A DNA stretch of 55,528 nt from a virus (IMGVR_UViG_3300032236_001351:1-55528); one strand, 5' to 3'; shown: positions 1-20,986, counted from the stretch's first letter. The notes: a model not told the origin generated them from the sequence alone. A program made the numbers and translations.

Positions 1-297
1 AAAATCAAAAAATTTAGTACTGGTCAATCGATCACCTTCAAACATTACATTTGATGACGTTTCGCCAACAAATTTGATTGCTTCTGGCATAACTGCCATT
101 GACAATCTATCAGTACCCGCAAAAACTTCTCCTTCTTCGTATTTCCCTATAATATGAAGATCCAATTCTTTAGAATATTTTGTGTTTACCAACTTTACAG
201 GTTCTTGATCTTCCCAATTATAAAAATCCATAAAATTACGAACAATAGTAGTTTTACCTACTCCCGGTTCCCCGATCACACAAATAACTTTTCTCAT
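1..297 (-). CDS. P-loop nucleotide/DNA kinase (5-hmU DNA kinase-like), N-terminal part; runs off the left edge
   Basis: Not in the ORF track. Manual translation from ATG at 297 gives MRKVICVIGEPGVGKTT...GEVFAGTDRLSMAVMP...VMFEGDRL: Walker A plus GTDxLS and FEGDR motifs. ATGA overlap with the upstream aGPT-Pplase gene. Confidence 0.75.
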   Translation of the reverse strand, partial: MRKVICVIGEPGVGKTTIVRNFMDFYNWEDQEPVKLVNTKYSKELDLHIIGKYEEGEVFAGTDRLSMAVMPEAIKFVGETSSNVMFEGDRLTSTKFFDF

Positions 298-1313
298 AAA
301 AATGCCTCAAATCCAACTTTCAATTCTTCTTCATCAGCAAATAGCCATTCCATTCTTGATATCTTTTTTGAGTTAATAAATTCTGGGTATTTACCAACGT
401 TTATCATCGTCTTACCACTCAAACGACTATCTAAACATTCATTTCTTGCTTGCCAAAGAACATTCCAATCAATACCATTCCAAGAATCTTTTTCTACTTG
501 AATAATTTCTTCAGATTGTCTGTCTAGATAATATCCAAGGTATCTTCCGTGTTTTTCTCTGAATATTTTCTTAAAAGAACACAAAACAGTTTCCATAGTG
601 AATTCATTTATATCATTAATTAGATCTGGAAATCTATCCTTCATCTCATTCAATATTTCTTGCGCAGAAGATTCTAAATTTTGATATTCAGAAGAGGTTA
701 GCTTTTCATTGTATTTTTCATCCATTCCTAGAGCAAGAAGTAATCCATTTCTATGACTTTTTGATCCAGAATAATCTTTTAACATCAATGATGTTGGACT
801 TATTGGAAGATTTACAGTAGAATATAATTGTTGTAAATAAAACCACACAGAATATCTACCAAATCTATGAAAATTATTCAAAGTAAAATTCCATATATTA
901 TCGAAACTAGATTTTTCATTATCTAATAATAAACCAAAAAAGAAATCTTTTTGTAGTCTATTTCCGATAATGTTTTTATAACATACAAACTTTTCTGGTA
1001 ATTTACCTTTTTCATACTTCATATCAACTTGATATCGAAGTCTTTTATAGTTATTATCATTCCACCAATTAAGTCTATCAAATGTAACCAACTCATAATC
1101 TGGAAATTCATTCATTAGAATCCAGGAAGTCGGTAATTGATAGGTATTACCATATAACCAAGCAAACCAATATTTTTGTTCTATATTGTGCTCATATCTT
1201 CTATTAATATAATTGGCTAACCAAACGGCAGGATCACAATCTTTAAAAGTCAATGACCAAGCATACCAACGAATGAATAATTCTCTTCTATTGTTCTTGT
1301 TGCTGTAATCCAT
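294..1313 (-). CDS. alpha-glutamyl/putrescinyl thymine pyrophosphorylase clade 2-like (amino acid:DNA transferase)
   Basis: DCDP, WFAWLYG, FGRYSVWFYLQ, S-H-RNGL, ETVLCSFKK and RYLGYYLDR motifs of the HhH-glycosylase-fold aGPT-Pplase2 family; adjacent to a P-loop kinase. Confidence 0.75.
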   Translation of the reverse strand: MDYSNKNNRRELFIRWYAWSLTFKDCDPAVWLANYINRRYEHNIEQKYWFAWLYGNTYQLPTSWILMNEFPDYELVTFDRLNWWNDNNYKRLRYQVDMKYEKGKLPEKFVCYKNIIGNRLQKDFFFGLLLDNEKSSFDNIWNFTLNNFHRFGRYSVWFYLQQLYSTVNLPISPTSLMLKDYSGSKSHRNGLLLALGMDEKYNEKLTSSEYQNLESSAQEILNEMKDRFPDLINDINEFTMETVLCSFKKIFREKHGRYLGYYLDRQSEEIIQVEKDSWNGIDWNVLWQARNECLDSRLSGKTMINVGKYPEFINSKKISRMEWLFADEEELKVGFEAFL

Positions 1314-1734
1314 CGATAAAGACCTTTAAAGATTCTTCCAACATGATAATAACCCTCTTATGCAGTTCATTACCTTTAGCAAAATTAGGATCGGGAATTT
1401 TAGGAATTCCAATTAAACTACTCAATCGAACAGATTTAGTCAAAACAATACTACCAAATTTTTCTTCCAATTTATCTCTATTAGAATCGTCCATGTAAAA
1501 AATTACATCTGCCCAATCTATCAATTCCTGTGATACTGGAGTAGATCTGATTCCTTCATTCGGATAACCCATTTCACTGAGAGCATCTCTCATTTTTTTT
1601 GCGGTTATTTCATTGCCTTTAGTGTCTTTTAAAGCAGCTGATTTAATCATCCAAGTAGGTTTGATTGTTTTAAGAATTATTTCCCCAGCAGCACTTCTGT
1701 TTATATTACCATGACAAACAAATAAAATATTCAT
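1288..1734 (-). CDS. low-molecular-weight phosphotyrosine phosphatase / ArsC-fold phosphatase
   Basis: N-terminal P-loop LFVCHGNINRS (Cx5R), WADVIFYMD, and general-acid IPDP. Confidence 0.85.
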   Translation of the reverse strand: MNILFVCHGNINRSAAGEIILKTIKPTWMIKSAALKDTKGNEITAKKMRDALSEMGYPNEGIRSTPVSQELIDWADVIFYMDDSNRDKLEEKFGSIVLTKSVRLSSLIGIPKIPDPNFAKGNELHKRVIIMLEESLKVFIDGLQQQEQ

Positions 1735-2702
1735 AATCCTTTAGCTTTACATTCAAGCATATATGGATATACCATTTTTGCAGTAACTTCTTCAACATTG
1801 TCTATATCAATTAATTCTCTTAATCCAGATAACCTTTTTTCTATTGTTCCTTTATTGTTAGTATCGAAATTAGTCCATTGATAAATCTGTTCACATTCAA
1901 AATCATACGGAGCAAATTTAGGAAAAGTATATTGGTATGAATCATTCATATAAAATTCATTCGGTGAAATTTCATCATCCATAAGAGCATAATATAAAAA
2001 ATTCTTACACCACGTAATACATGATTCCATTTCCTTCATATCCAGAGTTCCAGGAAAATGCCTAAATTCTATTGTATTTGTTTCTTCCCACATTTGCCTA
2101 AGATTTATCCCAGCCCTTGGACTAAAATACCACATTCTACCTTTATCAGTCAATGGAGCATGTTCTTCATAAAATTCTTGAGTGGTTTTCGCTTCCAACA
2201 TACAAAGAACTCTATTTAATGGGAGCTTAAATTGATGAGATTTCTTCCTTCTTTTCATTCTCTTCATTTCCCATTCATATACTTCTGGAATAAGAATATT
2301 TTTATTTGGCACAGGAATAGTTTCTGTTATATCAAAAGCCTGTTGTTGGTAAGTATGTATATAATTCAATAATTTCTTACAATATGACAGATTATCACTT
2401 AATCCAGGAACTCTGATATGTATATGTAGATTACTTCTATAATTAATGAGAGGTGAAGGTGTTAGGATTTTATTAATCTCAGATATATGATCTATTTGTT
2501 CTTCAATACTAAATGTTGGTTTAGTATTGATTTCTCCACCATATTTGTATAATTTACCATCAGGATCGTTTGCAATTCCTGTTGAACTTACACAAGTATT
2601 GTCTTTATTATTCCAAGATGCTCCTTCTGGTAATTTACAAAAACGATATGAGTTACCGTATTCCAATTCAACTCCATAAGACCATCCATCACATGAAATC
2701 AT
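1731..2702 (-). CDS. putative amidoligase (COOH-NH2 ligase, Amidoligase_2-like)
   Basis: YGVELEY, GGEINT, LHIHI and TIEFRHFPGT motifs; near a class II GATase gene. Confidence 0.75.
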   Translation of the reverse strand: MISCDGWSYGVELEYGNSYRFCKLPEGASWNNKDNTCVSSTGIANDPDGKLYKYGGEINTKPTFSIEEQIDHISEINKILTPSPLINYRSNLHIHIRVPGLSDNLSYCKKLLNYIHTYQQQAFDITETIPVPNKNILIPEVYEWEMKRMKRRKKSHQFKLPLNRVLCMLEAKTTQEFYEEHAPLTDKGRMWYFSPRAGINLRQMWEETNTIEFRHFPGTLDMKEMESCITWCKNFLYYALMDDEISPNEFYMNDSYQYTFPKFAPYDFECEQIYQWTNFDTNNKGTIEKRLSGLRELIDIDNVEEVTAKMVYPYMLECKAKGL

Positions 2703-3471
2703 CTAATCCCCCACTAACCACATTTTCATCATACGCTTTTTTGAAAGCTATTCTCATCTTCAAATCAACTATCAAATTTTGGTTTTTAGCACCAGTTTCT
2801 TCTTTCAGTGTAATATATTTTGGGTGCAGTTTCTGAAGATTATACATAGCTTGTTTATTTTTAACCCCATCTCTATTCAATGAACATCCACCATCTGCAT
2901 TAGCTTGTCTTTCTTTTGCAATATATTTACCAGATATTCTTAACCGTTTTCCCGATTCTAAAATAGACAAAGGAACATGAAAATCTTCAAAATAATCAAG
3001 AGTATCAAATCTAATATTATTACTAATTAAATAGTCTCTATTTAAAAAATGAGTAGCATATGGTTTTCCATAATAATATTCTTCTAAATTTTTATGGCTC
3101 ATGAACGTACTGGATTGAGTACAATAAACATCTCCTTCTTTCAACCAAGATTCCATCAAATCAAGATATTCTCTTATATCTTTTAATTTAATTGTTTTAG
3201 TTAAGTTTTCTGAATCCCTTTCATAAAAAGTCAAATCATCATCCATCATACCAACCAGATTAGATTTACTATTTTCAACTATAAACTGTCTCGTTTTAGA
3301 AATGCTTCCCATACAATATTCAGGAACATCTATCCTATTTTCCCATTCATGTTCTTCATTTTTTGGGCAAACTAAAAACACTCTAGACTTCCATTCTTCA
3401 GGTATAGATTTTAATGTTATTTGGTTGTTTTCTCTACCCAACGTAGGAATATACACTAATAGATCATTCAT
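2689..3471 (-). CDS. GT-A glycosyltransferase, TET/JBP-associated (TAGT-like) DNA glycosyltransferase
   Basis: IPTLGR start, MMDDDL (DxD), FEDF, and ADGGCS...R motif; in the same operon as a TET/JBP dioxygenase. Confidence 0.7.
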   Translation of the reverse strand: MNDLLVYIPTLGRENNQITLKSIPEEWKSRVFLVCPKNEEHEWENRIDVPEYCMGSISKTRQFIVENSKSNLVGMMDDDLTFYERDSENLTKTIKLKDIREYLDLMESWLKEGDVYCTQSSTFMSHKNLEEYYYGKPYATHFLNRDYLISNNIRFDTLDYFEDFHVPLSILESGKRLRISGKYIAKERQANADGGCSLNRDGVKNKQAMYNLQKLHPKYITLKEETGAKNQNLIVDLKMRIAFKKAYDENVVSGGLDDFM

Positions 3472-4147
3472 TTTGTAAATCCAATTCTTTAGTATTTGCT
3501 TCTTGGTCAGTTAAACAAAAATCATAATATGTTTTATATGTAAAGGGTTCGATTTCATTAATATCAATCAACCCAGAACGTTTAAGTATATCAGATGAAG
3601 AAGAAACTAGTAATCCATTTTCGATAAATGAATAATACAAAGGTCTTTTTCCATTTCTATAAAATCTTAAAGTTTTATTTGTTTTTAATTCACATACTGA
3701 CAATGAAGAATCTTCCCAAACCTCGAAAATATCTTTTTCGTCACTTATTGTATGTAATAATAATTCAGTATCATTCTTACTGTTACATTCATATCCATAT
3801 AAAGACTTCCAATTATCATATAATTCTTGTGTAATAACACCATTATGAACTACTGATAATTTGCCATCAGATATTGGCTGATTGTATAATAAATCTGAAG
3901 TTGAATATCTACAATGACCAATCAAATATAAATTACCATCTTCATTGATGCAATTATGTAATTCATCTAAAAATTTGAATTTATCAGCTGGTACTGACTC
4001 TTTTATAGTATGAATGGTATTTCCTTTAATATATGAAAGTCCTGTTGAATGCATTCCTCTTATTTTAGATTCAATAAAAATAATCTTTATCCTATCTAAA
4101 TCATCAAAAGATGGACTTCTAAGAAAAGCTCCTATTACAGCACACAT
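3464..4147 (-). CDS. class II (Ntn) glutamine amidotransferase
   Basis: N-terminal nucleophile MC, RG-H-TG, GHCRYST, NQP, HNG, NDTE, RPL. Confidence 0.9.
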   Translation of the reverse strand: MCAVIGAFLRSPSFDDLDRIKIIFIESKIRGMHSTGLSYIKGNTIHTIKESVPADKFKFLDELHNCINEDGNLYLIGHCRYSTSDLLYNQPISDGKLSVVHNGVITQELYDNWKSLYGYECNSKNDTELLLHTISDEKDIFEVWEDSSLSVCELKTNKTLRFYRNGKRPLYYSFIENGLLVSSSSDILKRSGLIDINEIEPFTYKTYYDFCLTDQEANTKELDLQNE

Positions 4148-5496
4148 TAAAAGAATTCATCCATAGAAAAAGTTTTTTGTACACTTTCTGGGTGGTACTT
4201 TAATAGCATATCATAACCAAGATTCTTTTCTACATATTCGTACCATTCTTCAGATTTATACCATCCTGGAGATACTCCATTCCACATAGGCTTCCATAAT
4301 GGATGATCTTTATTCAGTCGTCTTTCTTCAATAAAATTATGCCGACAATCTTCATACACCTTTTCTCCAAGATTTAACATATTTTCTCTAAAATAACACA
4401 CAACAGAATATCTTTCAGCACCTTCATCAAGAATAATTGGTGTATTACCATGAATACCACCATGATTATTAATCAACAACAAATCAGAAGGTCTGATATT
4501 AATAGCTACTCTATATTCTGGCAATACCAAAAGTCCACCAGAATAATTCTTTCCATCATTTAATACTGTTAAATTGGAAAAACCTTTATGAAGATCGCCA
4601 CTATCACGATGAGCAGCAGTTTGAAAGCTTCTATTTACTGTAATTGTAGTAAAAACGGTATCAGGAACATGAAATTCTGGATCGATCTTTTCAATACAAG
4701 ATTTCTGAAAAGCCCATCTTTTGGGGAGTAACTCAGAAAAAGCTTTAGAAAGTTTTTGTAAAAGAGGAAAAGCTAATTTAAATTTATCAAAATTTTGTTC
4801 AGTATATGCTGTAGCTCTTCCGTAAGGAATTCTATCATACCTCCCATACCAACCGGCAACACCAGACACAGAAGAAGCTGCATAGTCAGTTTTTGACATG
4901 TATTCCTTTTCAACTCTTTCTGCTTCTTTTTTCTGTTCTTCTGGTGGAAGTTTCTTGGTTTCATTTACCCATCGATCAAATTCAAATTCATCTTTTTTCA
5001 TTTTAGAAGAAATCCAAGCATACCCTCTGAAATCAGATAGCATATCAATATTTTCATATTTCTTGTAAATCTGGTCTACAGGATCTTCTCCAAACAGATT
5101 TGAATTAGGAGATGAAAATTGTTTCAGAATTTCTCGTTGGAGTGGAGTTATCCATTCTCTATCAGGATCTGTTTCGCCTTTAGGTCCTGCGGCCAATCCA
5201 CGATTAAAAGAAATTTTAGCTGCTCCCTTCAACCCTTCAAGAGCATTCTTTTGTTCATCATCAGAAAAGAAATTTTTGCGGAGAATAAAAATAACAGATT
5301 CTTCATCAATACCTTTAGGACAATTCGAACAATCTTTAGATACACAAGAGCCGATTTCTTCTATACCACATGTAGGTACTCCGAAAAAATTACAATCTTC
5401 ATCAATGACATAATCATAATGACTTTCATTCAAAAATTGACCTAGAAGATGTTCACAATCTAATTTTTCATTTGCTACAATAGTTTTAACCATCAT
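4147..5496 (-). CDS. TET/JBP-family 2-oxoglutarate/Fe(II) dioxygenase (5-methylpyrimidine oxidase)
   Basis: FTTITVN...TAAHRDSGD (HxD), GGLLVLPEY, HGNTP (distal His), RYSVVCYFRE (2OG-binding Arg). Confidence 0.85.
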   Translation of the reverse strand: MMVKTIVANEKLDCEHLLGQFLNESHYDYVIDEDCNFFGVPTCGIEEIGSCVSKDCSNCPKGIDEESVIFILRKNFFSDDEQKNALEGLKGAAKISFNRGLAAGPKGETDPDREWITPLQREILKQFSSPNSNLFGEDPVDQIYKKYENIDMLSDFRGYAWISSKMKKDEFEFDRWVNETKKLPPEEQKKEAERVEKEYMSKTDYAASSVSGVAGWYGRYDRIPYGRATAYTEQNFDKFKLAFPLLQKLSKAFSELLPKRWAFQKSCIEKIDPEFHVPDTVFTTITVNRSFQTAAHRDSGDLHKGFSNLTVLNDGKNYSGGLLVLPEYRVAINIRPSDLLLINNHGGIHGNTPIILDEGAERYSVVCYFRENMLNLGEKVYEDCRHNFIEERRLNKDHPLWKPMWNGVSPGWYKSEEWYEYVEKNLGYDMLLKYHPESVQKTFSMDEFF

Positions 5497-5504
5497 CGTC
5501 CCAT

Positions 5505-5512
5505 TATAAATA
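5505..5512 (+). promoter_or_regulatory. T4-type late promoter TATAAATA (for gp3)
   Basis: Exact gp55 consensus 22 nt before the ATG at 5535. Confidence 0.75.
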
Positions 5513-5534
5513 TTTGTATTTAGCAGATTATAAT

Positions 5535-6604: not shown

Positions 6605-7603
6605 ATGTCCAGCAAAAATATTTATACCATATATAGATTTACTAATAATAAAAACAATAAAGTTTATATAGGTAAAACTTCAAATTTCAGAGAAAGAATT
6701 AATAGTCATAAATTTAATTATAAAAATGGAGATACCGTATTTTATAAAGCATTAAGAAAACATGGTTGGGGGTCTTTTTGTATAGATATAATATATCAAA
6801 CGAAAAACCACGAACATTGTTTAGAAATGGAAACATATTTTATATATGAATATAATAGTTATATATCATTTGAAAATTCCAACGGGTATAATATGACTTT
6901 GGGTGGAGAGGGTTCATTGGGAGCAAATACAAAAACATACAACTTTTATGATATCTATGGCAATTATTATACAATCACCAATTTATATCAATTTTGCACA
7001 GAAAAGAATATAAGCAGTAAAGTTATGTATGATTTAGCTAACGGAAAACGACTAAAATATGATATATATATTTCCGCTTTAAAAGAAAAAAGGAAATTTA
7101 AAACATTTAAATTATACGATACGATAAAACAAGAGATAATAGAAATAACTGATCTTTCAGAATTTTGCGAAAAAAATGGTTATAATAAAGTAAATATGAT
7201 GAGATTAGTCACCAATGGGGTTAATCATTACGATATTTTTAAAAATATCAATAAAATTGATTATATTCCTATGGAGGAAAGAAAGTATTCATTTATTTTT
7301 AAAGGCCAAATAATAACTATAATAAATTTAAAGGATTATTGTGAACAAAATAATTTATCATATACTAAAATGAACGATTTATACAGAGGAAAGTGTAAAT
7401 CTCATGGAGATTATATTAATAATTATCCAGATTATATCCCCCCAAACAAAAGAATATTAAAATTGATTTCTCCATCCGGAGAAATATTAGAGATTAATAA
7501 TATTAAAAAATTTTGTATAGAAAATGGATTATCAGATTTATGTATCCAAGCCCTAAAGTCTAAAAAACAAAAACAACATAAAGGATACAGGTTATATGAG
7601 TGA
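6605..7603 (+). CDS. free-standing GIY-YIG homing endonuclease (Seg-like) with four C-terminal DNA-binding repeats
   Basis: TIY...VYIGKT, catalytic R and E, NGYNMTLGGEG; four repeats of I-x-NLxxFCxxNxL; inserted between uvsY and uvsW. Confidence 0.85.
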   Translation: MSSKNIYTIYRFTNNKNNKVYIGKTSNFRERINSHKFNYKNGDTVFYKALRKHGWGSFCIDIIYQTKNHEHCLEMETYFIYEYNSYISFENSNGYNMTLGGEGSLGANTKTYNFYDIYGNYYTITNLYQFCTEKNISSKVMYDLANGKRLKYDIYISALKEKRKFKTFKLYDTIKQEIIEITDLSEFCEKNGYNKVNMMRLVTNGVNHYDIFKNINKIDYIPMEERKYSFIFKGQIITIINLKDYCEQNNLSYTKMNDLYRGKCKSHGDYINNYPDYIPPNKRILKLISPSGEILEINNIKKFCIENGLSDLCIQALKSKKQKQHKGYRLYE

Positions 7604-15252: not shown

Positions 15253-16332
15253 ATGAATTGGACTAAACAAGAATGTATTAATGCATTAAAGGATTTATCT
15301 GAATTATATCCAGATGTCATTATTACTAGAGATTTTTTTAGACAAAATTCAGATTGTCCTGAATATTGGTGGACTCGATATTTTGGAACATTTTCTGAAT
15401 TTAAACAACATTGTGGATTAACAAAAACACGAGAACAGAATAAATTACTAAATCAAGTAGCTAAACATGCTTCTAAAGATTCATTAAGAAAGCTTAATGA
15501 AGAAAAGTCTGGTTATTCTGAAAAGTATCTTCGTCCTGATAGTAAACGATTTCAAACAATTGTTACTATAACTGATACTCATGATATTAGCCTTGATCCT
15601 TTCACGAGAAGAGTATATTTAGATACTTTAAAAAGGATTCAACCTGAAGTTATTGTATTCGGTGGTGATAATTTCGATCTTCCAGAATTCAGTAAATATT
15701 TTAATGATCCAAGAAATTATAATCTAATCGAACGTATTACTTGTGTTCATGAATTTCTAAGAGATATTAGAGAAATTGTTCCTGATGCGGAATTTAATTG
15801 GGTAGCTGGAAATCATGAATGCAGGCTAGTAAAATATCTTTCCGAAGCAAGTCCAAACATCATGGTACTATTATCGGATCTTCATGGCTTTACTGTATCC
15901 AAACTACTTGGACTGGATGAATTTGAAATTAATTACATTTCTAGAGAAGATTTAACTGTATTTAGTGAAACCGACCTTAAAAAGGAAATTGGTAAGAATT
16001 ATCTTGTTAAATTTGATTCCATTCTTTTCCACCATTATCCAGATGGAAAAAACTATGGTCTTCCTGGAGTTAATGGCCACCATCATGCTCATAGATGTGA
16101 AACTCTTCATAATCTGAATTTCGGTGCTTACGAATGGCATCAATTAGGTTCTGGTCATATTAGAAGAGCAAACTATTGTGAAGCACAAAGATGGTCAACT
16201 GGATTCATGATCAGTCATCATGATATATATAATAGAACTACTGTTTTTGAATACGTAGATACTACCAAGGATTTTACTATTGTTGGAGGTAAGTGGTATT
16301 CAAGAACTGAAGATGAAATTTATAAATTATAA
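15253..16332 (+). CDS. calcineurin-like metallophosphoesterase with an N-terminal helical (endonuclease-associated repeat-like) domain
   Basis: TDTH, GGDNFD, GNHE, HH, GHHH; N-terminus WTKQECINAL...YFGTFSEF...GL. Confidence 0.75.
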   Translation: MNWTKQECINALKDLSELYPDVIITRDFFRQNSDCPEYWWTRYFGTFSEFKQHCGLTKTREQNKLLNQVAKHASKDSLRKLNEEKSGYSEKYLRPDSKRFQTIVTITDTHDISLDPFTRRVYLDTLKRIQPEVIVFGGDNFDLPEFSKYFNDPRNYNLIERITCVHEFLRDIREIVPDAEFNWVAGNHECRLVKYLSEASPNIMVLLSDLHGFTVSKLLGLDEFEINYISREDLTVFSETDLKKEIGKNYLVKFDSILFHHYPDGKNYGLPGVNGHHHAHRCETLHNLNFGAYEWHQLGSGHIRRANYCEAQRWSTGFMISHHDIYNRTTVFEYVDTTKDFTIVGGKWYSRTEDEIYKL

Positions 16333-16349
16333 AAAGAGGTGAATATATA

Positions 16350-17147
16350 ATGCAAATTCAAATTACAAGAGAAGAGCTGGCTAAGAAGAAACTTTTTATC
16401 GGAATGCCAACTTATGGTGGGATGATGACAACCCTAACTGCTAAGTCATTAATAGATTTAAATTCATTAATGGCACAGTATGGTGTTGAGGTGAAGTTCA
16501 GTTTTTTGATGAATGAAAGTTTGATTCAAAGAGCCAGAAACTATATCACTGACGAATTCCTAAATCGCTCAGATTGTACTCATATGATGTTTATTGATGC
16601 GGATATTGTGTTTAATCCGCAAGATATTATTTCTATGCTTGCTCTTGATAAGGAAATTATCGGTGGACCATATCCGAAGAAAAGCCTTGATTGGAAGCAG
16701 CTTAATAAGGCATTAAAGAAGAACGCAGAACTTCCTGTTTCTGAGTATGAAAAGCTGACTGGATCTATTGTATTTAATCCAGTTGGAGGTACAAGTAAGT
16801 TTAGTATTACTGAACCTCTTGAAATTATGGACCTAGGAACTGGATTCATGATGATTAAGCGTGAAGTATTCGAAAAATATCAAGAAGCTTACCCTGAAAA
16901 GATGTATAAACCGGATCATGTTGGTCAGGCTCATTTTGATGGTACTAGGGAAATTTGTGCATTCTTTGATTGTGTGATTGATCCAGATTCCAAGCGTTAT
17001 TTATCTGAGGACTACTTCTTTACCCAACAATGTAGGAAGATTGGTATTAAGACTTGGCTTGCTCCATGGATTAATCTTGGACATATGGGATCTTATGTAT
17101 TCCAAGGCAGTCTTCCTGCTGTGGCTCAATACATAGGTGAATTGTAA
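16350..17147 (+). CDS. GT-A fold glycosyltransferase-like protein
   Basis: NESLIQRARN, MFIDADI, GTGFMMIKR, LSEDYFF, LGHMG. Confidence 0.7.
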   Translation: MQIQITREELAKKKLFIGMPTYGGMMTTLTAKSLIDLNSLMAQYGVEVKFSFLMNESLIQRARNYITDEFLNRSDCTHMMFIDADIVFNPQDIISMLALDKEIIGGPYPKKSLDWKQLNKALKKNAELPVSEYEKLTGSIVFNPVGGTSKFSITEPLEIMDLGTGFMMIKREVFEKYQEAYPEKMYKPDHVGQAHFDGTREICAFFDCVIDPDSKRYLSEDYFFTQQCRKIGIKTWLAPWINLGHMGSYVFQGSLPAVAQYIGEL

Positions 17148-18229: not shown

Positions 18230-18511
18230 ATGAGTAAGACAGTAGCTTCAACTTTTGGAACTTTTGATGAAGAACAGTTAAAGGTTCTAAAGTCTGGATT
18301 AAAAGAACTTTCTGATGTATTTACTATGCAAGAATCGCAGAAGGAAGTAGTGAAGGAAATTGTTAGTAATCTAAATGAAGAATTGAATATTCCAAAAAAG
18401 ATTATTTCAAAGCTTGCTAAGACTTACCATAAAAGGAATTTTGAATCCGTTTCTATGGAAAATGAAGAATTTGAACTTTTATATTCTGGAATTATTGAAG
18501 AAAATACTTGA
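18230..18511 (+). CDS. dsbA: double-stranded DNA-binding protein (T4 DsbA-like)
   Basis: Helical 93 aa with IPKKIISKLAKTYHKRNF...EEFELLY; strong RBS AAGGAG. Confidence 0.6.
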   Translation: MSKTVASTFGTFDEEQLKVLKSGLKELSDVFTMQESQKEVVKEIVSNLNEELNIPKKIISKLAKTYHKRNFESVSMENEEFELLYSGIIEENT

Positions 18512-18520
18512 TTTGTTTAA

Positions 18521-18534
18521 GGCCAAGGATGGCC
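18521..18534 (+). promoter_or_regulatory. GGA-loop hairpin matching a CsrA/RsmA site
   Basis: GGCCA-AGGA-TGGCC: CARGGAUG with GGA in the loop, 17 nt upstream of the gp44 ATG. Confidence 0.35.
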
Positions 18535-18551
18535 ATTGATGAGATTATATT

Positions 18552-19490
18552 ATGATTAATGATGAATTTATTTGGGCCGAGAAGTATAGGCCAAAAAGAA
18601 TCGAAGAATGTATTTTACCACAATCCACAAAGGAACTTTTCCAGTCGTATATAGATAATAAGAACATCCCTAATCTTTTATTATCGGGACAACATGGTAG
18701 TGGTAAAACTACTTCTGCCATAGCTATGTGTAATGAGATTGGATGTGATTATCTATTCATTAATGGTAGTTCTGAGAATGGCGTTGACGTTTTTCGTAAT
18801 AAGATAACAAATTATGCTTCTTCAGTTTCTATATCTGGTGGTAAAAAGATTATTATACTCGATGAGGCAGAAAGATTATCCGCTAATGCAATGGATGCTA
18901 TGAAAGCTGGGGTAGAAGCTTTTTATAAGAATTGTACTTTTATCATGACTACTAATCATAGGAATCGCATTCCTGGTCCTATTTTGTCTAGATTTACTGA
19001 AGTAGAATTTTCGATTACAAAAAACGAAAAGAAGACCTTGATAATGCAATTTTTTAAGAGAATTTGTACGATTCTAACTAAGGAAAATATTGAATATGAT
19101 AAGGAAGTTCTTGCTGTTCTTATTAATAAGTTTTTTCCTGATTATCGTAAATCATTAGTTGAATTACAGAGATATTCTATTAATGGTAAAATTGATTCTG
19201 GAATTCTTTCACAGGTTGGTGATATTCAACTCAAAGACCTTATTAAGTTTTTAAAAGAAAAAGATTATACAAAGACAAGAAGTTGGGTAGTAAGTAATCT
19301 CGACAGTGATCCCAATACTATTTACAGAAAGATTTATGATGGGTTATATGATTTCTTAAAACCATCATCTATTCCTAACATCATTTTGATCATGGCTCGA
19401 TACCAATACCAAACAAGTTTTGTTGTTGATCCTGAAATCCAATTATTATCTTTTCTCACAGAAGTAATGTTGGAAGGAGATTTTCTGTGA
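18552..19490 (+). CDS. gp44: clamp loader large subunit
   Basis: WAEKYRP, GQHGSGKT, LDEAE, ILSRF, FPDYRK. Confidence 0.95.
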   Translation: MINDEFIWAEKYRPKRIEECILPQSTKELFQSYIDNKNIPNLLLSGQHGSGKTTSAIAMCNEIGCDYLFINGSSENGVDVFRNKITNYASSVSISGGKKIIILDEAERLSANAMDAMKAGVEAFYKNCTFIMTTNHRNRIPGPILSRFTEVEFSITKNEKKTLIMQFFKRICTILTKENIEYDKEVLAVLINKFFPDYRKSLVELQRYSINGKIDSGILSQVGDIQLKDLIKFLKEKDYTKTRSWVVSNLDSDPNTIYRKIYDGLYDFLKPSSIPNIILIMARYQYQTSFVVDPEIQLLSFLTEVMLEGDFL

Positions 19491-19885
19491 GCTTGGATTT
19501 ATTTAAGGAATTACTTCCTTCGATATTACAAACGAAAGAATATATTCTAACAGAAGAAAATCAAAATGATTATAATCCATTTGTGGTTAATAAAGCATTG
19601 ACACAACATATGGATACTCTATATCATGCTAAAATGATGAATATGAATAGTCATTTAGATAATAAGATCCAATATGATTATTTGTTCCATGCTGTAAGAG
19701 GATATAAAAGACCTTATCAGAAATGGATTAAGAATGAAAATAATAAAGACCTTAAGCTCGTAATGGAGTATTATAATTGTTCATCTGATAAAGCAAAAAC
19801 ATTTTTATCAGTCTTAACACAAGATCAACTTAAGATTCTTGAAAAAAGAATGGATAAAGGTGGAAATCCTGGAAATACTAAATAG
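19487..19885 (+). CDS. gp62: clamp loader small subunit
   Basis: YNPFVVNKAL, QYDYL, EYYNCS..KA, DKGG; GTGA overlap with gp44. Confidence 0.9.
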   Translation: MSLDLFKELLPSILQTKEYILTEENQNDYNPFVVNKALTQHMDTLYHAKMMNMNSHLDNKIQYDYLFHAVRGYKRPYQKWIKNENNKDLKLVMEYYNCSSDKAKTFLSVLTQDQLKILEKRMDKGGNPGNTK

Positions 19886-19919
19886 TTGTAATAATAACCA
19901 AAATTTGGAGTTTTTAATT

Positions 19920-20327
19920 ATGACTGATAATGATGTATTCAAAGGATATGGGATTCGTGTTACCTTAGCTGATGAAGATAGTTTTCTTTTAATAAAAGAA
20001 ACCTTAACTAGGATTGGAATCTCTTCAAAGAAAGATAAGATTCTTTATCCAAGTTGTTATCTCCTTCATAAAAGAGGAGAATATGCTATTATGCATTTCA
20101 AGGAACTCTTTTCTTTGGATGGTAAATATTCAGACATTTCTGAAAATGATATCGCCAGAAGAAATACTATTGCCTTGCTTCTTGAAGATTGGGATTTATT
20201 GGATATTGTAGATAAGAAAAGTATTGAAGTTAATACTGTGGAGATGAACCAGATTAAGATTTTATCTTATAAAGATAAAGAACATTATGAGATTCATCAC
20301 AAATATAGTATTGGTAGTAAAAAGTAA
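19920..20327 (+). CDS. regA: translational repressor RegA
   Basis: FLLIKETLTRIGI, SCYLLHKRG, HFKELF.LDG, RRNTIA.LL.DW; ATG at 19920 after GGAG. Confidence 0.95.
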   Translation: MTDNDVFKGYGIRVTLADEDSFLLIKETLTRIGISSKKDKILYPSCYLLHKRGEYAIMHFKELFSLDGKYSDISENDIARRNTIALLLEDWDLLDIVDKKSIEVNTVEMNQIKILSYKDKEHYEIHHKYSIGSKK

Positions 20328-20378
20328 TCCATCGGGGTGGGTCTTGTTTTTTTAATTACAAGTAAAAGAAATTAATTC

Positions 20379-20404
20379 AAAGGGGGTTTACCCCCTTTAT
20401 TTTT
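20379..20404 (+). terminator. intrinsic terminator
   Basis: AAAGGGGGT-TT-ACCCCCTTT followed by ATTTTT. Confidence 0.7.
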
Positions 20405-20445
20405 GTCTTGATATATTATATAATATATTTTTGGGAGATAAAATT

Positions 20446-20640
20446 ATGAAAAATTTGAACAAGAAAACCGAAAAGATCGTTAAGGTTAAGAGTATCTTTA
20501 ATAATGATTTTTATTATTCATCTGAATCATTTCCAACAAAGACCATCGATGGTGAATTATTTGTTGGAGTTAAAAAGAATAAAAATGATAATGAAACTTT
20601 CTTTATGAAGAAAGATAATCTGGAGATTTGTAATGACTGA
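20446..20640 (+). CDS. hypothetical protein
   Basis: ATG after GGAG; overlaps the next gene. Confidence 0.6.
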   Translation: MKNLNKKTEKIVKVKSIFNNDFYYSSESFPTKTIDGELFVGVKKNKNDNETFFMKKDNLEICND

Positions 20641-20986
20641 TGTAAAGGTTAAATATGTTCGAAATGAACAAAAGAGGATTGCATTAACACTTGTTACTTC
20701 TCTTGAACGTAGACAAGATGGTAATTTAGTTAAGTGTGGTTGGGCATTTGCATCTAATCATGATGTATTCAAAAAGAAGGAAGGTAGAGAATTAGCAACT
20801 GAAAGAATGAATTCAGATGATGTTGATTATAGTTATTCTTTTTTTATTGATGAACCGACTCATTATGGAATTACTGATCAGGCTCTTCGGATTGTAGAAA
20901 ATAATATAAAAACTCCAAGAAAATATAAGGAAGAAATTGCTGAATATCTTTGGTGGTTAAATTGGTATAAAAATAATGAAATCTAA
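20633..20986 (+). CDS. hypothetical protein
   Basis: Coupled ORF; D.F.KKEGR..A..R motif seen in small phage proteins. Confidence 0.65.
   Translation: MTDVKVKYVRNEQKRIALTLVTSLERRQDGNLVKCGWAFASNHDVFKKKEGRELATERMNSDDVDYSYSFFIDEPTHYGITDQALRIVENNIKTPRKYKEEIAEYLWWLNWYKNNEI

Follow-up and report, generated by a model that had tools for sequence, protein, structure and literature searches.

The subject of this analysis is an operon of seven genes at the left end of a viral contig, IMGVR_UViG_3300032236_001351 (positions 1-55528). The contig was analysed whole and is called the window below; its 55,528 nt are estimated to make up ~32% of the phage genome. Positions 1-5496 hold seven open reading frames (ORFs) on the minus strand, and neighbouring ORFs overlap by 4, 26, 4, 14, 8 and 1 nt from left to right. 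An earlier note, made from the sequence without database searches, had described these overlapping ORFs as running opposite to every other gene called in the window. The ORF listing agrees: outside the operon, all non-nested ORFs of at least 120 aa are on the plus strand (nested meaning inside a longer plus-strand ORF). The sign of the GC skew reverses at ~6 kb.

All seven proteins were scanned against Pfam with its curated cut-offs, and every family assignment reaches or exceeds the cut-off. The first gene of the operon (4147..5496, minus strand, as are all those that follow) encodes a TET/JBP 5-methylpyrimidine dioxygenase of 449 aa (Tet_JBP PF12851, 74.6 bits against a cut-off of 34.9; phrog_24024, 3e-154). 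It is followed by a 227-aa stand-alone class II (Ntn) glutamine amidotransferase (GATase, here GAT; 3464..4147; GATase_6, 45.3 bits against 27), a 260-aa TET-associated glycosyltransferase of the GT-A type (TAGT; 2689..3471; PF20691, 34.2 bits against 27.5; phrog_842, 8.5e-31), a 323-aa Amidoligase_2 protein (AMDL, a carboxylate-amine ligase of the glutamine synthetase (GS)/glutamate-cysteine ligase (GCL)/PafA fold; 1731..2702; PF12224, 28.4 bits against 22), a 148-aa low-molecular-weight (LMW) phosphatase (LMWP; 1288..1734; LMWPc PF01451, 53.8 bits against 23.2), and a 339-aa amino acid:DNA transferase (AADT, formerly aGPT-Pplase clade 2; 294..1313; ADDT PF18724, 70.4 bits against 26.2). The last ORF (1..297) is a fragment of a P-loop kinase (Ploopntkinase3, KIN), of which the N-terminal 99 codons are present before it runs off the contig end; its 27.0 bits to PF18751 equal the cut-off of 27. 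PLP decarboxylase, radical SAM and FAD oxidoreductase families had no match among the seven proteins. The earlier note had called the same seven domains, and the Pfam profiles, the conserved residues, and fold checks of the dioxygenase and the amidoligase uphold every call.

The catalytic domain of the dioxygenase spans approximately aa 244-371 and is preceded by an N-terminal region of 243 aa that matched no Pfam family. Residues H296, D298, H345, H349 and R362 are invariant in the alignment of 17 homologues; they are read here as the HxD...H iron triad and the 2-oxoglutarate (2OG)-binding Arg. The AlphaFold2 (AF2) model has a predicted local distance difference test score (pLDDT) of 71.8, the N-terminal region being modelled with mixed confidence, and its best Foldseek matches are NgTET1 (E 9.1e-7, TMt 0.48), CcTet, TET2 and CMD1. 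Roughly half of the 17 aligned homologues share a Cys-rich insert with four Cys at aa 43-59, which is deleted from the others. Full-length homologues are present in cultured phages, namely Caulobacter phage Cr30 (47.6% identity), Stenotrophomonas phage DLP6 (46%), phage C48C1 and S-CBWM1. Public annotation mislabels the dioxygenases of Cr30 and DLP6 as 'SNF2 DNA repair protein' (the genes concerned are Cr30 gp114 and gp129, and DLP6 AAY80_030).

In the transferase, C245 is invariant and E241 almost so; the alignment places both on the motif of M6 gp51 and Det7 gp175. The Cys and the Glu of AADTs are reported as essential by Lee 2021 (PMC8989533). At E<=1e-5 the AADT profile matches 1502 proteins, of which the best 120 are 57-62% identical to the window copy and are single-domain proteins of 338-355 aa, a set that is uninformative on fusions.

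The kinase fragment contains the Walker A motif GEPGVGKT. Its orthologue in the closest relative of the window, contig L002, has 179 aa, is 89% identical, and scores 39.9 bits to PF18751 (cut-off 27); judged from this orthologue, ~80 kinase codons are lost at the contig end. The earlier note had the genes continuing past the left edge. This is correct for the kinase, which is cut there. The expectation of further genes finds no counterpart in L002, where only those ~80 codons extend beyond the window's end, which is that of the whole contig, and where the module stops at the 179-aa kinase with AmoC next and no additional tailoring gene after it. Assignment of the kinase to the characterised family PF18748 (the 5-HMUDK family) was considered and rejected, since neither the profile nor BLASTP connects it to the family of M6 gp54. 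M6 gp54 itself (L034:16686-17249), experimentally shown to be a 5-hydroxymethyl-deoxyuridine (5-hmdU) DNA kinase, is publicly mislabelled 'terminase small subunit', and phrog_800, which the window kinase matches, is annotated likewise. The 19% co-occurrence with 'terminase' given in O'Toole 2026 (PMC13229309) may partly stem from such mislabelling of kinases.

The AF2 model of the amidoligase has a pLDDT of 88.9. Its Foldseek matches are weak (best E 1.1e-3). In VIA-align the top 19 rows are all GS, GCL, PafA or Dop, with Z values between 10.4 and 5.3, and a different fold comes next at Z 4.3; the best row is 1tt4_A (Z 10.4, root-mean-square deviation 4.6, 228 aligned residues). A search of PDB sequences with the amidoligase profile gave two matches, both at chance level. 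In the phosphatase, C7, R13, S14, D115 and P116 are invariant over 19 sequences and make up a CX5R(S/T) loop and an Asp-Pro general-acid loop. The protein has a single Cys, so that the redox cysteines of the ArsC type are absent. Its gene lies directly downstream of the amidoligase gene in every contig that shows both.

Conservation of the operon was surveyed in 40 distinct contigs gathered by amidoligase and phosphatase searches; counts out of 41 include the window. The seven-gene set listed in the earlier note recurs complete and in identical order in L002, with 61-89% amino-acid identity. The six genes TET-GAT-AMDL-LMWP-AADT-KIN are colinear and on one strand in 30 of the 40 related contigs, and nine of the ten contigs without a complete colinear core end at contig edges. 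A departure from the order is seen in one of the 40, L048, where a ribonucleotide reductase and a SegE endonuclease stand upstream of GAT and there is no dioxygenase. The recurrence of identical genes in identical order in other viral contigs indicates that the gene set is not a chance association.

The TAGT gene is present in three of the 41 contigs (the window, L002 and L079). Elsewhere this slot, which lies between GAT and the amidoligase, is taken by a GT-B glycosyltransferase (L038, L066, L082) or a 2OG-Fe(II) oxygenase (L055), or is empty; c31 and the genes in the slot of L047, L059 and L068 matched no Pfam family. L063 has a 2OG-Fe(II) oxygenase placed between the amidoligase and the phosphatase. 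The cassette is thus a widespread six-gene core, and the window has a rare, glycosyltransferase-bearing version in which the variable slot is filled by TAGT.

Other cassettes occupy the place between the conserved dioxygenase and kinase in the same lineage. They comprise GT-B + AADT + inositol-1-phosphate synthase; N6/N4 methyltransferase + AADT; a divergent AADT alone (L010, whose kinase is 95% identical to that of the window); GAT + GNAT + AADT; GAT + amidoligase + GNAT + AADT; TET + TAGT only (L012, L014 and L027, from the same virus group); and TET alone. The N6_N4 DNA methylase-family gene of L006 (8381-9070) and L007, which form one cluster, lies in the tailoring slot between the dioxygenase and AADT, and its product may be a DNA methyltransferase or may instead methylate the appended group. 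A tblastn search of cultured phages with the GNAT of the sister cassettes, for a relative like PaMx11 gp48, gave no match.

The closest NCBIfam models of GAT are the N-terminal domains of AsnB, PurF and GlmS. The protein is a glutaminase domain only, with no fused synthase or acceptor domain. Residue C2 and the motifs R80-Y-S-T83, H101-N-G103 and N125-D126-x-E128 are invariant in 24 sequences; by analogy with PurF, GlmS and AsnB, C2 is presumably the N-terminal nucleophile, and we take the other motifs to be those that bind glutamine. An AADT is present at every GAT locus that has both flanks visible (not cut at a contig end). AADTs beside GAT are 46-86% identical to the window copy, versus 24-34% for AADTs without GAT, and by this measure of sequence the former are a subclade of their own. 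At eight GAT loci a GNAT is present and there is no amidoligase; four such contigs, up to 133 kb long, were searched with the amidoligase profile and gave no match.

Complex prediction covered the pair of GAT and AADT, in three runs plus controls. The predicted complex has an ipSAE of 0.89 in all three runs, against 0.00 for the best control; in the calibration of the predictor, 58 of 80 solved complexes and 2 of 110 mismatched pairs reached its mark. Contacts are at least 97% concordant between runs, and the partners have pLDDT values of at least 91. The predicted contact patch of AADT consists of residues 39-45, 67-80 and 279-285, and the contact face of GAT of residues 1, 28-33, 81-83 and 103-109, segments that contain invariant active-site motifs. 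A search of PDB sequences with the AADT profile gave 0 matches, so the prediction is not recall of a known complex. Of the 25 interface positions in AADT, 14 are invariant in the 24 GAT-associated AADTs; in nine AADTs without GAT the interface positions are 18% (0.18) identical to those of the window. The four most distant GAT-associated AADTs have an interface identity to the window of 0.70, versus 0.47 elsewhere, a value reached by 7 of 2000 random position sets. A natural fusion of GATase_6 and ADDT is also known (P0124, 588 aa), and its AADT part is 41% identical to that of the window.

Neither the C5-methyltransferase family PF00145 nor the thymidylate-synthase family PF00303 (Thymidylat_synt) has a match in the window or in five related contigs (estimated to be 16-74% complete). 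ParB_N PF02195 has no match in the window at E<=1, nor in the five related contigs or the complete genomes of Cr30 and DLP6 at E<=0.1. These missing matches make oxidation of thymine on the polymer the most likely entry point of the pathway. The hydroxymethyl handle most likely arises after replication, through the TET/JBP enzyme, and the earlier note's proposal of a post-replicative handle is supported in this respect. The dioxygenase has no co-localised ParB and was therefore not placed in the ParB-dependent subclass of phage T-dioxygenases (O'Toole 2026).

These features suggest, with a probability of about 0.7, that the operon of this T4-like marine phage is a post-replicative thymidine hypermodification module. 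The core of such a pathway is established at the level of the families and would extend to the window copy by homology. The TET/JBP dioxygenase would convert thymine in DNA to 5-hydroxymethyluracil (5hmU), and the P-loop kinase would phosphorylate the hydroxymethyl group. The Cys245/Glu241 pair of AADT would then remove the phosphate and couple a nitrogen nucleophile to the 5-methylene. With the 227-aa glutaminase docked on AADT and glutamine ammonia fed in, the first adduct would be 5-aminomethyl-deoxyuridine (5-aminomethyl-dU) and not an amino-acid adduct. The amidoligase of GS/PafA fold would acylate this amine in an ATP-dependent step, a place that the GNAT acyltransferase would take in sister cassettes. 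The LMW phosphatase may strip phosphate from the acyl donor or from leftover 5-phosphomethyl-dU, and TAGT would add a sugar to remaining 5hmU or to a side-chain hydroxyl. The purpose of the modification is likely to be the shielding of phage DNA from host nucleases.

That GAT feeds ammonia to AADT, giving 5-aminomethyl-dU, is a tentative proposal, held at somewhat less than even odds. GNAT and the amidoligase, both of them amine-acylating, interchange across the cassettes, and PaMx11 acetylates 5-aminomethyl-dU (Lee 2021, PMC8989533), which fits a supply of ammonia to AADT. The fuller proposal is more tentative still. GAT and this subclade of AADT would form a two-component glutamine-dependent DNA amidotransferase that aminates the 5-methyl of thymine directly on the polymer, giving the primary amine 5-aminomethyl-dU; from there the ligase, the phosphatase and, where present, a glycosyltransferase or hydroxylase would assemble a side chain that is acylated, in some cases also glycosylated, and unlike any described base.

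Several points weigh against these interpretations. The evidence is computational (profiles, alignments, gene order and models), not biochemical. A methyltransferase, ParB or hydroxymethylase could sit elsewhere in the genome, given the share of it that the window covers, and the cultured relative Cr30 encodes a Thymidylat_synt homologue. The kinase is not matched at E<=0.01 by PF18748 (HMUDK_HMUD1), the family of the characterised 5-hmdU DNA kinases, against which M6 gp54 scores 65.1 bits, and BLASTP finds no similarity between the kinase and M6 gp54. The interface check is partly circular, because structure predictors tend toward conserved patches as interfaces. GAT is fused not only to AADT: P0121 joins it to an amidoligase-like domain, the C-terminal part of this protein being 27% identical to the window amidoligase (E 6e-19), and P0122 joins it to GNAT, as probably does P0123, which has no Pfam hit. 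The fusions therefore do not single out AADT; each of the four, P0121, P0122, P0123 and P0124, is represented by 1-3 member sequences on short contigs. In the cultured phages tf and RIO-1 a longer GAT-II stands beside Amidoligase_2 with no AADT present, an arrangement that fits the classical pairing of a GAT with a ligase.

In that pairing, AADT would attach a whole amino acid via its amine, the amidoligase would activate the free carboxylate as an acyl phosphate, and GATase ammonia would turn it into a carboxamide, or the ligase would extend it with a second amine. The earlier note had suggested that GATase and amidoligase together amidate or extend a carboxyl group, and this stands as one option, albeit a somewhat less likely one than the supply of ammonia to AADT. 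The GS/GCL/PafA fold of the amidoligase speaks for it, as members of this fold act through acyl phosphates, and so do the gene order of tf and RIO-1, the fusion P0121, and the reported substrates of the characterised AADTs, which are glycine, serine or putrescine (Lee 2021, PMC8989533). Against it stand the eight loci at which GAT and AADT are accompanied by GNAT and the amidoligase is missing, the predicted binding of GAT to AADT through a patch specific to the GAT-associated subclade, and the GAT-AADT fusion P0124. These same observations favour the docking of GAT on AADT proposed above.

The products of the operon might also be two rather than one. TAGT would glycosylate some 5hmU in the manner of base J while the kinase and AADT convert other sites, and the phosphatase would merely return unreacted 5-phosphomethyl-dU to 5hmU for the sugar branch. 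Such a division of labour is conceivable and rather on the improbable side. It accords with the loci of the same virus group that have TET and TAGT only (L012, L014 and L027), with the annotation of TAGT relatives in cultured phages as hydroxymethyl-base glucosyltransferases, and with the optional nature of TAGT, found in three of 41 contigs. The content of the TAGT slot in other contigs, where it is a GT-B enzyme or the 2OG-Fe(II) oxygenase of L055, together with the oxygenase between amidoligase and phosphatase in L063, looks instead like tailoring of a side chain, and the phosphatase tracks the amidoligase rather than the glycosyltransferase. Very improbable is a module in which the substrate of the dioxygenase is 5-methylcytosine (5mC) and cytosine is hypermodified, with the methyltransferase encoded somewhere in the two thirds of the genome that the contig lacks. 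In its favour are the phage TETs of clades A and B, which oxidise 5mC, and the suggestion that kinases could phosphorylate 5-hydroxymethylcytosine (5hmC) (Burke 2021, PMC8256090); the size of the window leaves room for such a gene. Against this, PF00145 is unmatched even in related contigs with a completeness of up to 74%, the chemistry associated with the AADT and kinase families is that of 5hmU (Lee 2021, PMC8989533), and only 6% of mined 5mYOX pathways are reported to co-occur with a C5-methyltransferase (O'Toole 2026, PMC13229309).

The earlier note had also proposed that this phage joins the TET/JBP route with that of the kinase and AADT. This central inference is already published, as Lee 2021, Burke 2021 and O'Toole 2026 describe TET/JBP enzymes with kinase and AADT genes. 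In metavirome contigs, TET_JBP replaces the dUMP hydroxymethylase beside 5-HMUDK and aGPT-Pplase2 (Lee 2021, NAR, PMC8989533, Figure 2 sequences 22-25), and the same paper describes the action of the kinase and then AADT through the exocyclic methylene. P-loop kinase and aG/PT-PPlase are reported in TET contigs by Burke 2021 (PMC8256090). Phage T-dioxygenase activity was shown by O'Toole 2026 (PNAS, PMC13229309), who found GATases, P-loop kinases and AADTs associated with its ParB-dependent subclass. The TET_JBP metavirome clusters of Lee 2021 and O'Toole 2026 resemble the window in that GATase and amidoligase domains are co-associated in them too, and Lee 2021 (PMC8989533) states the function of these domains as unknown. 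They differ in that the window is without ParB and has a Ploopntkinase3 kinase in place of HMUDK, and in that their main texts do not mention an LMW phosphatase. In Burke 2021, O'Toole 2026 and Pyle 2023 the main text nowhere contains the word 'phosphatase', and in Lee 2021 it occurs in a methods context only; figures and supplements lay outside this comparison, and the cassette may be drawn there. The coupling of GAT with AADT appears to be a new prediction, as the main texts of Lee 2021 and O'Toole 2026 do not describe it. A literature search found no report characterising the GATase or amidoligase step or the product of this gene set, in agreement with the earlier note's caveat that no characterised base of the full combination was known. 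The feature is real and its annotation correct; the kind of pathway is published, and this gene set and its product are uncharacterised.

The M6/PaMx11 and ViI pathways, which lead to 5-NedU, 5-AcNmdU and 5-NeOmdU, share with the window the order of kinase first and then an AADT with essential Cys and Glu, and the acetyltransferase of PaMx11, acting on 5-aminomethyl-dU (Lee 2021, PMC8989533), parallels the GNAT of the sister cassettes. In these pathways, unlike the window, 5hmU comes from a dUMP hydroxymethylase, PLP decarboxylase, radical SAM or FAD enzymes are used, of which the window module has none, and the AADTs accept glycine or serine and are not paired with a GATase. Base J synthesis (JBP1/2 with a glucosyltransferase) and phage TET+GT glycosylation of 5hmC are similar in the placing of a TET/JBP dioxygenase beside a TET-associated glycosyltransferase. 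The window operon has five more enzymes, and its glycosyltransferase is dispensable in most relatives. The clusters of LUZ24-like phages, tf and RIO-1 (GAT-II + Amidoligase_2 + COOH-NH2 ligase + ATP-grasp + GGCT) likewise have a class II GATase homologue, 25-30% identical, near Amidoligase_2. Their GATases are 420-531 aa long, compared with 227 aa in the window, and their annotated neighbourhoods are without TET, AADT and kinase.

The cultured T4-like phages Cr30 and DLP6 share the full-length dioxygenase, including its N-terminal region, and Cr30 also has an AADT (ADDT match, E 1.3e-52). The cassette of Cr30 differs in that it lacks GAT, amidoligase and phosphatase and includes a weak TAGT-like gene along with an inositol-1-phosphate synthase. 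Cr30 gp121-gp129 (L031:2209-8682) matches the L004-type cassette. A single literature search on DNA modification in Cr30 found nothing relevant.

The PHROGs neighbours of the operon in the window include a tail-tube-like protein, UvsY, a GIY-YIG homing endonuclease, a UvsW-like helicase, the gp55 late sigma factor, gp47/gp46, peptide deformylase, DNA ligase and the gp43 polymerase. This set of neighbours points to a T4-like myophage with a bacterial host. No near-identical DNA was found in cultured phages, the sole match being 523 nt at 64.8% to Cr30. The GIY-YIG homing endonuclease gene (phrog_314; 6605-7603, plus strand) lies between the UvsY and helicase genes; it is a singleton cluster and is not at this site in any related locus. 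The dioxygenase start is separated from the tail-tube-like gene by a gap of ~38 nt, inside which TATAAATA occurs at 5506-5513 on the plus strand; we take this to be the T4 late-promoter consensus.

In L002 the kinase gene is directly followed by an AmoC gene (15822-16589, plus strand; ammonia/methane monooxygenase subunit C; PF04896, 398 bits). Further downstream are an NMNAT-NUDIX gene (18235-19251), an RlaP gene (19248-20141) and a putative NAMPT-like ORF (20122-20787). The AmoC, NMNAT-NUDIX and RlaP genes are unusual cargo for a T4-like phage with a gp55 sigma factor and peptide deformylase.

Thymidine hypermodifications shield the DNA of phages against restriction and CRISPR nucleases, and the enzymes that make them serve as DNA-labelling tools. 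The cassette described here poses the concrete question whether glutamine, via a docked glutaminase, is the nitrogen donor for AADT. The cassettes of this one virus lineage are a natural series of ready-made dropouts: TET alone; with a glycosyltransferase; with AADT and kinase; then with GAT and GNAT; with GAT, amidoligase and phosphatase; and with a sugar transferase or hydroxylase in addition. Since Cr30 and DLP6 carry the same unusual long dioxygenase, the first step is open to study in a living system. If the two-component amidotransferase proves true, it would be common in T4-like environmental phages, to judge from the 1502 proteins that match the AADT profile.

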